Source: Haliotis rufescens
Taxonomy: Eukaryota
Length of the DNA stretch: 64,000 nucleotides
Assembly: GCF_023055435.1 (NCBI RefSeq)
Contig: NW_025963835.1
Location: forward strand, 27,466,001-27,530,000
Reading direction: 5' to 3'
Position 1 is the first letter of the stretch, and each line of letters opens with the position of its first letter. Below, one piece after another: positions 16,511 to 63,466 of the stretch. The notes beneath the pieces are model-generated. The model saw only the letters and a program-made list of their open reading frames with translations, made no database searches and was not told the DNA's origin. The translations under genes and the position numbers were made by a program.

Positions 16511-16615
16511 ATAATGTCCAGGGTTAACAATCATCAATATTGTTTGAATATTGATGACTGCGCTGTTTCACTAATTTACTATTGAATAAAAAAATAGGGG
16601 AAGAAATATGTTGGA

Positions 16616-16868
16616 TTTGTTTGTTTTTGTATTTGTTTTGTTGTTTAACGCTGCGCACAGCAATATTCCAGCTATATGATGGTGGTCTGTAAATATTCAA
16701 ATCTGGACCAGACAATCCAGTGATTAATATCATGAGCATCGATCCACGCAATTGGGATCGATGACATGCATCAACCAAGTCAGTGAGCCCGACCACCCGA
16801 TCCTGTTAGTCGCCTTATGACAAGCATGGGTTGCTGAGGCCCTATTCTACCCCGGATCTTCACAGGTC
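16616..16868 (-). mobile_element. Retroposon family B, single module
   Basis: Full-length; TSD about GAAA.ATGTTGGA. Confidence 0.88.
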
Positions 16869-18751: not shown

Positions 18752-20186
18752 TCTAGTTGACGACAGCAGCACCTAACAACTCGGAACCCTCGTACCTGGG
18801 CCTTGAAGTCCCTGCAAATGAGGCTCTCTTTGAAATCACATGATAACAGTTTGAGAGCACAGCACTTTTAGGACTTAGCGAACAAACAGCAATTACTGTT
18901 GTGAAATATCCAATAATTTTGATTTATCTAGGGAGACGCACTTGAGAGGCCTGTCAGACAGGAGAAAACTGCATTTGTTAAATCCATCTGACCAAACTCA
19001 GTAGACAATACCCAACCAAAACCGAAGGACTTTTTCCTAAAAAAGTCATTTCTCCAGAACAAACTAAGTTCATCAAAGCATTGCACAGGATGGCTTTGAC
19101 ATTTTACGAAAATAATTTACTTTGGAGGTCCCCGGTCCACTGCTCAGACAGTGCTAATCAGCTTATCGTAAACTAAATGTGTCTCGTAAAAACATTGGCG
19201 AGTTTCTCAGTGGAAATTGCCATCTCCAGTACAGAAAACTCATCCATGGTAGAGATGGGGAGTGGGAACCGTTTAAAGTAGACACACGCATTAGACATAC
19301 ACCTAATCAGTACATCAGGATAACCTTTTAACAATCACGGAAGGGACAGTATCACTTCTTGTGCATTTGTCACCCCCAACAAGACATAGCCCCTCCCTTG
19401 GGAACAAAAAATTGGTCTGAGTAATCTAAAGAAGACATACAAATTCTCGTACAATAATTGAGAAAGTGTGCTGTCGATGCAATGACGCAAGTTGTGACCT
19501 TGGCCTTTCAGCTGCTTGTCAAGAAATTAATCGGCATCTGTCCATGAGGTTGTCCAATAATAAGAGCCGTCGGTCATATGGTAATGACACAGACCTGGTC
19601 ACTTTAGACTCGACAGAGTCAAGTAATGAGAATGGTAAACTACTTCCAGTATGGCTTAATCTCTTTCAGGGAAGTATGTCTTTCAAACATCACTTGATCT
19701 CACATGACACAGGAAGACGTTCTTGAGGCATTAATATTGCCAGAAACTGTTTTTTGGTACAATGTATTTTCTCGACAACTGATGGGGTGTAGTATGGAGT
19801 TTGTTTGTTTGTTTGTTTGTTTGTTTGTTTGTTGTTTAACGCCATACTCAGCAATATTCCAGCTATGTGAATATATTTACTCCTTGAATATTGGCTGTCA
19901 CAAGCTTAGCTAACTTGACCAAAATTTATGTCATTAGACTCGGGCTACAAAATTTTCACTCCCTTGACTTGATCTTCTGACCAATGCCCCTGCTGGGATC
20001 TGGGATAGGCTGGGTTCATAGCAACCTTACATGGCTTAAATCGGTGGAGATTCTGGGTAAGAATTGGTCCCCAGCAACACACTCTGGTCGTAAGATATGA
20101 CCAAATGGATCGGGTGGTCAGTCTTGGTGATTTGGTTGAGTGGGTGTCCTCGTACCCTGATGGTGTGGATCGTTGCTTACAATATT

Positions 20187-20597
20187 CAGCATTAGAAATT
20201 GGCACTAGTCCTATAGATCTTGCAAAAGTGCCCAATATTTAAGATATCATAGAAGGAGTAGAAATTAGACATTTTAAAGTTTCCTTTTCTGTTGTTTAAC
20301 GCCGCACTCAGCAATATTCCAGCTATACGACGGCGGTCTGTAAATAATATCGTCTGGACCAGACAATCCAGTGATTGACATCATGAGCATCGATCTATGC
20401 AATTGGAATTCAATGACATGCATCAAACAAGTCAGCAAGCCTGACCACCCAATCCTGATAGTTGCCTCTTACGACAAGCATAGTCGCCTTTTTACGGCAC
20501 GCATGGATTGGTGAAGACCCATTCTACCCCGCATCTTCACGGGTCGCCATTTTTAAGGTTTTGCTACATGTTATCATTACAAGGACTAGTAGACTAA
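20187..20597. mobile_element. Same MITE family, interrupted by a family-B retroposon; right end lost
   Basis: CAGCATTAGAAATTGGCACTAGTCC start; colinear with the 63041 copy. Confidence 0.65.
20288..20545 (-). mobile_element. Retroposon family B nested in a MITE
   Basis: Full-length; imperfect TSD CATTTT(T)AA(A/G)GTTT. Confidence 0.88.
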
Positions 20598-26226: not shown

Positions 26227-26493
26227 GACCCGTGAGTTTGGGATAGAATAGGTCATCCTCAACCCATTCTTGCCAGAAAAAAGGCGACTATGTTTGTCAT
26301 AAGAGACAACTAATGGGATCAGATGGTCAGGTTCACTGACTTGGTTGATGCATGTCATCGTATCCCAATTTTGTGGATTGATGTGGATGATGTTAATCAC
26401 TGGTTTGTCTGGTCCAGATTTGATTATTTACCGACCATCGTCATATAGCTGGAATATTGCTGAGTGTGGCGTTAAACAACAAACAAACAAACA
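26227..26493 (+). mobile_element. Retroposon family B inserted into an older antisense B copy (26165-26541)
   Basis: Starts GACCCGTG; TSD AACAAGCA(C/T)A. Confidence 0.88.
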
Positions 26494-27002
26494 AGCATAC
26501 AGCTGCTGGGGACCTATTCTAACCCGGAATCCACATGGGGTCAACCTCCAAGGAGACATGGCTTCATATTTCTGTGAGGAGGTCCACAGAGGTCAGAGTG
26601 ACCGCAGGACCTCGTCTCCCCTCCTCAGTGGGGACGGATCAATGGCAGTATAATAGCATCAATCTAAACATGCCTCCTCTGCCGCCACAGAGATCTGTCT
26701 TTGTGGTCTTAGCTGACTTTCAGCAGTGGCCAGGTCAGCCCAATCCTAAACTCCACAACATAGACGGGAGTCACAACTTCTGCATTATTCAGACCTATAG
26801 ACACATGAACAGCTGGTCGTCTGGTCTCAAATTTGGATCCCGGGGTTGCAAATTTGCATATAAATTGTGTGGTTACACAGATTGTAGGTTAATGTCAACA
26901 TTGATAGCTGTGAAGAGATGTTGGTAAATAAAAACAAGGATATCTATTATACATATTGTAAATGATATGATATACATGATATACCAGCATGATAATATTT
27001 GA

Positions 27003-31309: not shown

Positions 31310-31760
31310 GATAAAAAAATAGACGAGTTTCAGTTACATGCTTTTGTTAAACATAACCTCATATTAAATAAGTTTGATGGGGATATTAATCATCATTGCA
31401 ATATAAACCAACAATATATGTATAACATGTTAACTACTGTAACATATCTCTGTATTCCAATAATAGAATTAGTACTTTACTGTTGTAAACATGGTAAATG
31501 ACCTCTGTCCAAGGTTGACAAAAAACACTTTTTTGGTAACCATCCATTTTTGAATTAAACTGTAAATGGTGGTAGGACATCTTTATGATTTAATCAGCTT
31601 TGGACAACACATTCTTTCATAATCATTACCAAACTTGGAAACATTTTTTGGACGTTTTGGATGACAATTAGTCAGTGTCCAAGAAAATGAACCAATATGA
31701 AACTATGTGGTGATTTTCCTGATGTAGGAATTTGGCAGGTATCATGCATATTTGGTGTAT

Positions 31761-32027
31761 GTTTGTGTTTGTTTGTTGTTGAACGCCACACTCGGCAATA
31801 TTCAAGCTATATGACTGCGGCTGTAAATAATCGAGTCTGGACCAGACAATCCAGTGATTGACATCATAAGCATCGATACACGCAATTGGGATACAATGAC
31901 ATGCATCAACCAAGTCAGCGAGCCTGACCACCCAATCCCGTAAGTCGCCTCCTATGACAAGCAAAGTCGCCTTTTACGGCAAGCATGGGTTGCTGAAGAT
32001 CTATCCTAACCCGGATCTTCACAGGTC
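31761..32027 (-). mobile_element. Retroposon family B
   Basis: Full-length; TSD TA(T/C)TTGGTGTATG. Confidence 0.9.
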
Positions 32028-37776: not shown

Positions 37777-38070
37777 TTTGTTTGTTGCTTACCACCTCAC
37801 TCAGCAATGTTTGTTTGTATATTTGTTGTTTAACGCCGCACTCAGCAATATTCAAGCTATATGGCAGCGGTCTGTAAATAATCAAGTCTGGACCAGACAA
37901 TCCAGTGATTGACATAATGAGCATCGATCCCTGAAATTGGGATACGATGACATGCATCAACAAAGTCAGCAAGCCTGACCACCTGATCCTGTTAGACACT
38001 TCTTTCGACAAGCATAGTCGGCTCTTAAGGGTTGCTGAAAACCTATTCTCTACCCAGATCTTCATGGGTC
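37777..38070 (-). mobile_element. Retroposon family B with a duplicated 3' tail
   Basis: Body plus an extra CACTCAGCAAT tail copy. Confidence 0.85.
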
Positions 38071-40130: not shown

Positions 40131-40401
40131 GGTTTGTTGGTTGGTTTGTTGTTTAACGCTGCACTCGGCAATATTCCAGCTATATGACAGTGGTCTGTAA
40201 ATAATCGAGTCTGGACCAGACAATCCAGTGATTAAAATGATGAGCATCGGTCCACGCAATTGGGATACGGTGACATGCATCAACCAAGTCAGCGAGCCTG
40301 ACCACCTGATCTTGTTAGTCGCCTCCTACGACAAGCATAGTCGCCTTTTACGGCAAGCATGGGTTGCTGAAGACCTTTTCTACCCCGGATCTTCACGGGT
40401 C
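40131..40401 (-). mobile_element. Retroposon family B, near-consensus, double module
   Basis: Full-length; TSD CAAGTCA(T/C)CATGGT. Confidence 0.9.
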
Positions 40402-47097: not shown

Positions 47098-47292
47098 GTG
47101 AGTGAGTGAGTGAGTGAGTGAGTGAGTGAGTGAGTGAGAATGGTTTTACGCCGCTTTTAGCAATATTCCAGCAATATCACGGCTGGGAACACCAGAAATG
47201 GGCTTCACACATTGTACCCATGCCAGGAATCGAACCCGGGTCTTTGGCGTGACGAGCGAATGCTTTAACCACTAGGCTACCCGACCGCCCCC
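47098..47292 (-). mobile_element. SINE family A with a long (ACTC)n tail
   Basis: TSD CCTGACACAAAG. Confidence 0.9.
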
Positions 47293-49858: not shown

Positions 49859-50734
49859 TGGACTATGATGTACACTTCTAAAATTTGAAAATATTCACAT
49901 CACTTCTGCCATGTTCTGCATCTACTCTGTTTAGTCCAAAATGGCCAAACCTCTGTTTTGGCAGCAACATTGCGTCAATTAGCCAACACAATTTCTATTC
50001 ATTATCAGCTAGCCACCAGTTTTCGATCTTGCATCTATCTACACAAGTTCATCTTACTTGACTGAATTAATTTTACTCAATTCAGCTTTGGGCTGGCTGA
50101 TAAATTCATATGCAGCTGCTTAACGTGTATACCACATACATATGCCAAAATGTAACCATGGTAACTGTCCATGATCAGACCAATTTGTATTCTGCATCAA
50201 CACAACATAGTGATACCAACCCTGCATTAGTTACTTCCCTTGTCAACATCAACTTCACGAAGACCAAGCAATGAAACATCTACTATTTCAATGTTGTGTT
50301 AATTGTGATAGTTTCAGACAGAAATGTATGGGCCTTTGTTTTTCAAAACCTAATATACAGACCCAAGCCTCATTTATTAATTAGGGCTTTACCATCATAA
50401 TCATGATAATCATATATGTCAGAACAATTGGCCCACTCTGCATAATAACTTACGTGATGTAAACCATAAAAAACAATGTAGAATACATGAACAAATCCTA
50501 CTAATATTGGACACTGCTAAAAATAACCGCTCGCAGTCACCTGACTGCCAATCATTACCCTGATTGTGACCATGCGATAAAAAATCAAAGATGATGTTTA
50601 TCGCAAGAAAAATGGATATTTCTTGAAAAGAGTAATTTGCAATTTTGGCTGGTTGTTATTACTTTATTGAGATATTTTCGTTAATTAATTGCGATTCTAC
50701 TTTGAAGTGGTGAGGACTATAGAATCCTTACCAT

Positions 50735-50977
50735 GACCCGTGAAGATCCGGGGTAGAATAGGTCTTCAGCAACCCATGCTTGCCATAAAAGGCGACTAAC
50801 GCTATCGGGTGGTCAGGCTCGCTGACTTGATTGATGCATGTCATCGATCCCAATTGCGTGGATCGATGCTCATGATGTCAATCACTGGATTGTCTGGTTC
50901 AGACTCGATCATTTACAGACCGCCGTCATATAGCTGGAATATTGCTGAGTGCAGCGTTAAACAACAAACCCACCTAA
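50735..50977 (+). mobile_element. Retroposon family B, single module
   Basis: Starts GACCCGTGAAG; perfect 14-bp TSD AGAATCCTTACCAT. Confidence 0.92.
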
Positions 50978-51959
50978 AGAATCCTTACCATGTAATATTT
51001 TCTCAAAATTTCAAAATGAGCACTTCCTACATTTGTTAGCCTTGGGACATTTGTCCTTAGATTTAGCTTACACAAACACATAACCAGGGCAAGCACCTTT
51101 TATTCAAAGTTTTATTCACTTCACATCCAGTATGACAGATGCCACAGCCTTTCTTTTCCTGGACCATTCTAAATTATCCATGACAGACTTATCTTGACTA
51201 TGAATACCAAAGAGCTGTCTTGGATTCATTACTAGTTTTGTCATGTTTCTGTCCAGGTCGGCAAATGGAACTGCCCTTCGGAAAATAAATGTTGACTTAC
51301 CATAGTAACTGTTTCTGAACTTACACTGCTTGCTTCAATTTGAAGGTCAAAGCAGAGGTCAAATTTATGACAGTGTCAATGCTAGGGTTGTCATCAAACA
51401 TCACAAAATACAATACAACACACAAAAAGCCTACCCATGTATAGATTCATGTGTTATTTCTGATTCTAAAAAATTAGTATTTACGTTTTGCAACAACTTG
51501 GTCTAATGACTGCTTGGGCTAGTGCTACTTTACTGTGTATCACGAAACAAAAGGCTAAATCTGACTGCATAAAACATGTACTGTCAGGACAAACCAGTCA
51601 TGCAAGTTAAACTGAAACACAAACAAATTGAGAATGATGATCAGATGTATTTGGACTCAGGTAAGCTTGCTTCTACATCCCTAGCGTGTGCTTCTTAATG
51701 CTTCCTCTTACAAGCTTAAACACAGTCTGCGACTTGAGCCATGTGTCTGAAAAAGTCTGGTAACATTCTGTTCAGTCTAGTAAGCTCAGTTAATAATAAT
51801 CCACATAATAACACCAAATTCTACTTAAAACGATGCACTGAGCCATGTTTGAGCTAGTAGTTTCAAAAGTCTTTGGCAGAGACTGAAAACATGTCAAACC
51901 CAGGAAATGTCTATCATTTTACCATAATACCATGTGCATTTAATTACGAAACCCCATCC

Positions 51960-63040: not shown

Positions 63041-63466
63041 CAGGGTTAGAAATTGGCACTAGTCCTATAGTCCTGACCCGTGAAGATTCCAGGGTAGAAT
63101 AGGTCTTCAGCAACCCATGCTTGCCGTAAAAGGTGACTATGCTTGTCGTAAAAGGCGACTAACGGGATCGGGGGGGCAGGCTCGCTGACTTGGTTGATGC
63201 ATGTCATCAAACCCAATTGCGTGGATTGATGCTCATGATATTAATCACTGGATTGTCTGGTCCAGTTATTTACAGACCGCCGTCATATAGCTGGAATATT
63301 GCTGAGTGCGACGTTGAACAACAAACCAACCAACCTATAGTCCTTGCCAAACTGCCCAATAGTAAAGGTATTCTAGGGACTAGTAAAAATTTGTCATTTT
63401 TAAAGGTTTTGCTATATGTTATCATTATAAGGACCAGTGGACTGAAACTGTTAGTTTCTACCACTG
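63041..63466. mobile_element. Same MITE family, interrupted by a family-B retroposon; in MKS1 intron 5
   Basis: CAGGGTTAGAAA...TTTCTACCACTG with 5-bp TSD GTAAT. Confidence 0.8.
63075..63333 (+). mobile_element. Retroposon family B, double module, nested in a MITE
   Basis: Starts GACCCGTGAAG; perfect 11-bp TSD CCTATAGTCCT. Confidence 0.92.

Follow-up and report, generated by a model that had tools for sequence, protein, structure and literature searches.

A 5'-terminal pseudoknot module of SINEs, LINEs and viral contigs as a candidate exoribonuclease roadblock

The first ~70 nt of an abundant Haliotis rufescens retroposon are predicted to form a compact RNA module in which a 5'-terminal H-type pseudoknot is followed by a stem with an invariant, T-loop-like hairpin. 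This structure is supported by covariation across SINEs, LINEs and viruses. The family, named here after a copy that starts at position 50735 of the window (the whole 64,000-nt stretch of DNA that was analysed), appears by its sequence to be an element of a described kind and fits the LP-SINEs of Matetovici 2016. We tentatively propose that the head fold acts as an xrRNA-like roadblock to 5'-to-3' exoribonucleases and thereby sets the LP-SINE 5' end. Somewhat more doubtfully, it could represent a new xrRNA class that is common to invertebrate retroposons, Nimb/I and RTE LINEs, and unrelated RNA viruses, with SINE 5' ends produced by Xrn1/Xrn2 trimming. Both this kind of SINE and its LINE-derived head have been described before, and the RNA fold apparently has not: the fold, its viral occurrence, and the ribozyme-plus-module head were found neither in Rfam 15 nor in the literature searched (text of open-access papers), and no paper in that search contained the core 15-mer.

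The 50735 family and its partner LINE

The sequence-only reading had described the family as a retroposon lacking a tRNA head, and our analysis agrees: it is an ~255-nt element that is flanked by target-site duplications (TSDs), ends in a (CAAA)n tail, lacks a tRNA head, and has a sharply defined 5' end. All eight copies named in that reading begin where it had placed them, with GACCCG or a close variant. Apart from the copy at 50735 (+), these are the full copies at 63075-63340 (+; with a 22-nt core duplication), 40135-40401 (-; with the duplication and a TSD), 31760-32027 (-; with a TSD), 26227-26495 (+; head diverged), 20285-20545 (-), 16615-16868 (-; single core, TSD), and 37815-38070 (-; head with an internal deletion). 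The estimate of over 20 copies or fragments is matched by 40 pieces retrieved by BLAST and 22 heads retrieved with a covariance model in the window, where the 5' 14-mer had 12 matches (2.7 expected) and the core 15-mer 24 (0.8 expected). Pol III A and B boxes had been reported as lacking, and a one-mismatch scan of the best copy indeed returned only loose A-box and B-box look-alikes; nor was there a tRNA or Rfam match in the SINE head.

The copy at 50735 spans ~243 nt between 14-bp TSDs (50721-50734 and 50978-50991, + strand). Its head is followed by the element body (50804-50927), a segment homologous to the 3' end of the I/Nimb-type LINE L283 (50928-50961), and a short CAAA/CCAA-type repeat tail (50961-50977). 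The copy lacks the 22-nt duplication that is present in 46 of 107 heads. This tandem duplication of the core was seen at window positions 63075, 40401, 32027, 20545, and others, and some copies contain three units. Also found in the window were the head of an older subfamily (20038-20114, +; further members are L231, L235, and L242), with a compensatory change in both strands of stem P2 (defined below) and AAUGG after the core, and a second SINE family (47215-47286, -) with a tRNA-like head (Rfam tRNA, 35.6 bits) and a tail resembling that of the 50735 family.

To characterize the 5' end, we used a 464-kb sample consisting of the window and 40 stretches at round coordinates. Nucleotides 1 to 3 were reached by 33 of the 67 3'-complete copies, and 44 of 69 body-anchored copies start at nt 1 to 4. 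TSDs were called in 25 of 85 tailed heads; they measured 9 to 22 bp, with 16 of them at 12 to 13 bp, and 13 of the 25 TSD-bearing copies had exactly GA between the TSD and CCCG. The precise 5' end claimed for the family is thus present in the sampled copies, 1 to 2 nt ahead of the first stem of the module, and a purine occupies +1 in the families checked. Truncations that seemed to cluster at nt 62 to 67 were discarded as an alignment artefact of single-core copies, given that 4 of the 69 body-anchored copies start at nt 46 to 70.

In the 1.33-Gb genome, the core 16-mer had 26,895 exact matches and the 5' 18-mer had 15,496, with none for the reversed control in either case. The covariance model retrieved 60 heads in 400 kb at round coordinates, which corresponds to roughly 200,000 genome-wide, all subfamilies included. 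A tandem array with a period of ~640 bp and a core variant in each unit is located at G000:C57:2176648-2212231, with about 50 units listed. Small-RNA reads from three miRNA-seq runs of one study showed no pile-up at either 5' edge; mapping was to the SINE plus the LINE head and to a near-majority SINE copy, at the shallow depth of 8 to 157 reads per run in miRNA libraries. At L245:2584-2614 (-), 63 of the 96 reads of run X21 share one antisense start and are ~31 nt long; these antisense reads look like piRNA against the 3' half of the element.

LP-SINEs were described by Matetovici 2016 in abalones, oysters, and a periwinkle as elements with TSDs and tandem-repeat tails and a length of 255 bp in Haliotis (PMC4758252). 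According to the same text, their ~70-bp head is LINE-derived and common to Nimb-17_LMi, I-3_DR, and RTE-9_CPB, and it was proposed as a LINE promoter. The 50735 family resembles these LP-SINEs (Hdi_LP, Hmi_LP, Oco/Oed_LP, Sgl_LP, and Lsa_2) in a number of features. (i) It has no tRNA, 5S, or 7SL head. (ii) Its ~70-nt head is homologous to a LINE 5' UTR, and the module is also present in I/Nimb-type LINEs of the genome. (iii) It has variable TSDs and a tandem-repeat tail. (iv) Its length up to the repeat tail is 251 majority columns over 26 copies, compared with 255 for Hdi/Hmi_LP. In addition, its core is that of the scallop heads labelled "Nimb-17 homology" in PMC4758252. The element itself is thus not novel, LP-SINEs having been described already (PMC4758252). 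It was likened to the published Haliotis consensus by description, its 5' word being absent from three supplementary files of Matetovici 2016. The hexamers quoted there before the Haliotis and Ostrea tails are absent at that place in the copy at 50735, which may reflect a species variant. The text parts of that article propose the promoter and make no mention of a head fold, a partner LINE, viruses, or an upstream ribozyme.

L283 is an intact LINE with an ORF1 and an APE-RT-RNase H ORF2; its I/Nimb label rests on this ORF layout and on Matetovici 2016 (PMC4758252). It is probably the partner of the 50735-family SINE; the local alignment of its 3' end with the SINE tail scored 54, above the maximum of 48 among 2000 shuffles.

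A covarying pseudoknot with an invariant hairpin

To define the fold, we compiled sequences matching the core pattern. In metagenomes, these were 120 stretches that fell into families of 47, 31, and 11 members, four pairs, and singletons; the pattern also yielded the older subfamily, the LINEs of the genome, and viral contigs. The strand order of the module, P1-P2-P1-P2-P3-P4-P3, was constant across families. In the copy at 50735 (+ strand), the two initial bases GA (50735-50736) precede the 5' strand of P1 (50737-50740), a stem of 3 to 5 bp in which the 5'-terminal CCCG pairs with a CGGG located directly behind the first P2 strand (50749-50752). L1 is a single U (50741) that is invariant in alignment A1 and conserved to at least 90% in A2. 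P2 has 6 to 7 pairs, seven in this copy (50742-50748 with 50761-50767). L3 (50753-50760) ends in a conserved AGAAUA and accepts insertions at its start, of up to ~70 nt in other families. After a linker, P3 (50773-50777 with 50800-50803) encloses an internal loop and the P4 hairpin, GUCG-(7 nt)-CGAC, which together with AA covers 50781-50799 and has its 7-nt loop at 50786-50792. The partner of the 5' strand of P3 consists of the bases after the core, in a register that differs among families; it was seen in the minimum free energy folds of L284, L196, L341, and L136. The copy at 50735 is itself decayed, with GCCA for GTCG and ACGCT for ACGGG: P1 and P2 are kept, and pairs of P4 (two substitutions in its stem) and of P3 (CGCT for CGGG) are lost.

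The comparison of 18 families supports this structure. The cells paired amounted to 87.5% for P1, 87.0% for P2, and 97.2% for P4, and two-sided changes were found at 7 of 7 pairs of P2 and 2 of 4 pairs of P1. None of 500 shuffles reached the fold score, partners slid against each other paired in at most 49% of cells, and the G-U pairs agree with an RNA of the + strand. In scallop heads inspected by eye (PMC4758252), P1 is CCCT/AGGG, and P2 is wholly different in sequence yet paired. The four core pairs of the P4 stem did not covary. Across 76 LINE copies, the base pair just below GUCG/CGAC was always G-C (44 copies) or G-U (32 copies), and it is A-U in L341. In the same 76 copies, U1, A5, G6, and G7 of the P4 loop never varied and positions 3 and 4 did. 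This distribution of invariant and variable positions is that of a T-loop. The structure parser fitted 22 of 24 representatives, the fits of L108 and L117 being visibly wrong and P2 being doubtful in L082 and L132. Because MAFFT shifts rows with a 1-nt L2, as well as row v191 in A2, the pair counts are lowered for both this fold and the one drawn earlier, and P3 was left out of the counts because its register varies.

The sequence-only reading had recognized a conserved, pseudoknotted module tied to the 5' end, and both covariation and copy starts bear this out. Of the four helices that it drew, two stood and two proved wrong or weakened. Its GAAGATC/GGTCTTC stem is real and corresponds to P2, and its hairpin is present in a different register, since GUCG/CGAC around 7 nt is paired in 97% of cells versus 83% for the register proposed. 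The enclosing CCCGT/ACGGG stem is paired in 36% of cells over the 18 families and the loop-GGGT/ACCC pseudoknot in 58%, the partners having been swapped. The ViennaRNA fold of the copy at 50735 is close to that nested drawing (z of -0.73, not significant). Both drawings are possible in the 50735 family because of its C-runs and G-runs, and the alternative stems can still form in many G/C-rich rows of the alignment. The suspicion that the core occurs at retroelement 5' ends of other invertebrates was justified, for example, by the scallop heads and the metagenome families.

The module was correctly judged to be neither HDV-like nor hammerhead. An Rfam search, also suggested earlier, returned nothing over the module at gathering and E-value thresholds and no ribozyme family (hammerhead, twister, pistol, hatchet, hairpin, and the rest). 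Three further candidates were rejected. An HDV-like ribozyme would have the nested double pseudoknot P1-P2-P3-L3-P3-P1-P1.1-P4-J4/2-P2, which differs from the order P1-P2-P1-P2-P3-P4-P3 of the SINE head. A hairpin ribozyme with AGAA paired to UGUC would also need its flanking helices, and these fail to form, as judged by inspection against the consensus. RNase P cleavage of a T-arm-like hairpin would be expected to place the 5' end at P3 rather than P1.

In some families the module is combined with other elements. It directly precedes a tRNA-like head in L106, L135, and L146, which belong to the metagenome family of 11, as it does in scallop MESC SINEs; transcription must therefore start upstream of the tRNA part in these three loci. 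In L082, L132, and the metagenome family of 31, it is followed by sequence resembling the 5' and 3' UTRs of RTE elements. This context is in line with the RTE-9_CPB case as published (PMC4758252).

The module in ribozyme-headed LINEs and in viruses

The I/Nimb-type LINEs of the genome have a minimal HDV-like ribozyme at their very start, 57 to 58 nt upstream of the module. This 57-nt segment lies at the exact 5' end of L283 (L283:9169-9113, - strand) and was also seen in L284 to L332 and L346 to L375. By inspection, it comprises P1 with a G+1.U pair, a 3-bp P3, L3, GG, CUAA in J4/2, and P2; the Rfam model RF02682, which has a gathering score of 44, stayed below that threshold with 27.5 to 29.3 bits in 4 of 5 loci. 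The flanks of the LINEs diverge upstream of the ribozyme G+1, the TSD of L283 ends at that G, and the LINE copies start at G+1 of the HDV-like ribozyme. Among 47 module matches near ORF1, 43 carried the ribozyme and 2 carried remnants of it, and there was one SINE and one ribozyme-less LINE. When 30 loci were picked by the core alone, 27 had the ribozyme, 1 had a degenerate one, 1 was truncated inside the module, and 1 was ribozyme-less. The exact ribozyme-module junction had 873 genome matches and the LINE-type core had 1,097. The ribozyme-less type (L323 and L366, two copies with different flanks) appears, judged from flanks alone, to start at the module. Kojima 2018 lists six clades with 5' ribozymes (PMC5786205), and the HDV-like ribozyme predicted on I/Nimb-type LINEs is an addition to that list. 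The ORF1 proteins of L284 to L333 are 51 to 57% identical, and their ribozyme-plus-module heads are nearly identical, many copies being clustered; near-identical heads on LINEs with diverged ORF1 suggest recent swapping of 5' UTRs.

A covariance model built from retroposon heads only scored eight viral contigs at 30.6 to 70.1 bits, and viral loci with the core by chance reached at most 17.4 bits; since the viral loci were chosen by the core pattern, these bit scores serve as a comparison, and their E-values differ from what an unbiased search would give. Six distinct RNA-virus-type contigs have the fold in their 3' UTR, and it was also found in one large DNA virus. An RdRp is encoded by four contigs, namely, L196 (toti-like) and L203, L205, and L345 (tombus-like), and an RNA-virus-type capsid by three, L188 and the near-identical L191 and L204. 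Module copies of the RNA-virus-type contigs lie on the coding strand, 6, 10, 21, 75, 101, and ~200 nt behind the last stop codon and 81 to 186 nt from the contig end (81 to 88 nt in L205 and L345). In the 212-kb DNA virus, the module is intergenic (L195:6980-7055), upstream of a gene, ~140 nt before a 1056-codon open frame, with P1, P2, and P4 intact and P3 decayed. A second, partial copy was noted at the very end of a viral contig (L188:1-47, -). A CRESS-virus origin beside the L061/L188 copy was rejected, as an S-domain capsid is encoded on that contig and the motif comes after the final stop codon. Viral pattern matches without the fold were set aside at 2 of 7, 14 of 21, and a further 15 of 15 loci (best score of 21.9 bits, no P1).

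Prokaryotes nearly lack the module: among 185,579 species, eight pattern matches were retrieved, seven of which are real modules. These occur in an animal-symbiont assembly, at chimeric contig ends, on short contigs, or beside microsatellites, and they look like eukaryotic contamination. SINE-like elements with the module, one of them with a TSD, are joined to bacterial MAG contigs at L336:93-290, L341:147-235, and L339:1475-1556; L336 has a long, bulged P2 and L341 an 8-bp P3. These three elements are probably eukaryotic contamination.

Setting the 5' end, and comparison with known RNA systems

The sequence-only reading had proposed that the module sets the 5' end either by self-cleavage or as an internal Pol II promoter. 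Its tie to the 5' end holds, and both mechanisms are weakened. Cleavage or initiation at the edge of the module would leave LINE RNAs without the upstream ribozyme, and the retention of this ribozyme in 28 of 30 LINEs counts against both; the occurrence in RNA-virus 3' UTRs, where a Pol II promoter would be useless, further speaks against a promoter. The two ideas could nevertheless stay viable if the LINE variants were inactive. An exonuclease block, conditional on a 5'-phosphate upstream, would spare ribozyme-cut RNA and trim host transcripts to the SINE edge. On the mechanism that we propose, SINE copies would be transcribed passively within host transcripts, and an upstream 5'-phosphate end (of a debranched intron, of a decapped RNA, or of the fragment downstream of a poly(A) site) would admit trimming by Xrn1/Xrn2. 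The T-loop-like loop of P4 would dock on the pseudoknot, probably via an A of AGAAUA, and lock P1, so that the enzyme would halt. The LINE ORF2 protein would then bind the tail and copy the trimmed RNA by TPRT, giving a new copy that begins at the fold. A 5'-OH end is not a substrate of Xrn enzymes; in LINEs that start with an HDV-like ribozyme, which would leave such an end, the ribozyme would be kept and the fold would provide backup protection. Viral 3'-terminal RNA would be shielded by the same block, as it is by known xrRNAs, and the module's viral position is where xrRNAs are generally located, in 3' UTRs (PMC10321173).

Several observations speak against a block. Plain H-type frameshift pseudoknots fail to stop Xrn1 (PMC10321173), so that this proposal depends wholly on the predicted tertiary contact. 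The long insertions in L3 sit badly with a tight ring, the 22-nt duplication falls inside P3/P4 in 46 of 107 heads, and the fold seems redundant behind an HDV-like ribozyme. Moreover, the fold is near the contig end in L205 and L345 and, with P3 decayed, upstream of a gene in L195, and a purine at +1 also fits transcription initiation. Finally, core pairs without covariation, as in P4, look like sequence-specific protein recognition or a catalytic core.

Recognition by a conserved host factor (an initiation factor, the ribosome, or another protein) that supports translation or stability of uncapped LINE and virus RNAs is, in our estimate, unlikely to be the explanation. The fold would then carry SINE RNA to the ribosomes that make the ORF2 protein, much as Alu reaches ribosomes through SRP9/14, and the sharp 5' end would arise only as a side effect, either of protein footprinting or of the way in which the 5' junction forms. 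Such a role is in keeping with the invariant, non-covarying P4 stem, with a fold kept behind a ribozyme that leaves an uncapped end, with its 3' UTR location in tombus-like viruses, which have relatives that use 3' translation enhancers, and with its 5' UTR position in the DNA virus L195. A parallel is L1Tc, for which refolding into an IRES downstream of the ribozyme has been proposed (PMC3383444). Nevertheless, SINEs are non-coding, and in several non-coding families compensatory changes preserve the fold as a whole; in L283, the fold lies ~560 nt upstream of the start of ORF1; PMC12397905 describes 3' CITEs as plant-virus-specific; and Rfam returned no cap-independent translation element over the module. 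By itself, a host factor leaves 5' ends 1 to 2 nt ahead of P1 unexplained.

We consider it quite improbable that the fold belongs to an undescribed class of self-cleaving ribozymes and releases the element from host transcripts by a cut at the 5' edge of the module. It is compact and pseudoknotted, with many invariant unpaired bases, its 5' end is fixed relative to P1 amid random flanks, and 5' ribozymes are used by other LINE clades (PMC5786205). Efficient cleavage would, however, remove the ribozyme that HDV-headed LINEs retain, unless the LINE variants, which differ at few core positions, are dead; a linear RNA virus cut 80 to 190 nt before its end would presumably lose its 3' terminus; and no Rfam ribozyme matched. 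More improbable still is an internal Pol II DNA promoter, the "LINE promoter" of Matetovici 2016, perhaps with an RNA structure in addition, as in Pr77 of L1Tc. The location at the 5' end of LINEs and SINEs, the purine at +1, the DNA palindrome GTCG-N7-CGAC, and the copy upstream of a gene in a DNA virus agree with a promoter, but stem sequences change and stay paired, G-U pairs included, the RNA viruses have no DNA stage, and LINE transcripts would lack the HDV-like ribozyme if their start were fixed at the module.

The fold bears on the question, standing since 2016, of how transcription of LP-SINEs and of LINEs with the same head takes place. If the fold blocks Xrn1/Xrn2, nuclease-resistant RNAs would not be solely viral and would also carve a non-coding element from host RNA, and the module would have moved between viruses and retroelements. 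SINEs would then have a fourth route to a 5' end, without a Pol III head, promoter, or ribozyme, and an xrRNA would have been written about 200,000 times into an animal genome. An HDV-like fold now protects uncapped template RNAs in retrotransposon-based gene writing (PMC13708176), where a compact 5' protector would be of use for such templates. Should the module be a ribozyme or a translation element instead, it would still be an RNA family missing from Rfam 15.

The known systems closest to the module share parts of it. Pr77/L1TcRz of the trypanosome elements L1Tc and NARTc is likewise a ~77-nt 5' signature common to a LINE and its short partners (PMC3383444). As described there, Pr77 combines an HDV-like ribozyme with a promoter, whereas the module has another strand order and, in the LINEs of the genome, a separate HDV-like ribozyme upstream. 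The class 1 and 2 xrRNAs of flaviviruses form a three-way junction with a double pseudoknot (PMC12397905), an arrangement that the module lacks. Coremin (xrRNA-C) requires a pseudoknot-like part and a downstream hairpin (PMC10321173; PMC10520033), and the module resembles it in the H-type-like pseudoknot, the single L1 base, the downstream hairpin, the position at the start of 3' UTRs, and the spread over unrelated virus families. In the module, unlike coremin as described in these articles, P2 consists of seven canonical pairs, the downstream hairpin is fixed in sequence, and the 5' stem encloses a variable P2 strand instead of a YGAD or YGNNAD loop. Class 3 xrRNAs (Tombusviridae/Solemoviridae) consist of a pseudoknot and a canonical T-loop (PMC12397905). 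The module has in common with them its compactness, a 5'-stem loop that pairs with a downstream 3' strand, a T-loop-like element, and a viral 3' UTR or intergenic position. The class 3 T-loop, according to the same source, lies inside the apical loop and docks on the P1/P2 (J1/2) bulge, whereas the T-loop-like loop of the module caps a separate hairpin 3' of the pseudoknot; in addition, P1 of the module has only 3 to 5 bp, there is no common sequence motif, and the module also occurs in animal retroposons. The module thus holds a pseudoknot and a T-loop-like hairpin in a new order, which on the exoribonuclease-block reading would make it xrRNA-like and place it outside the known classes.
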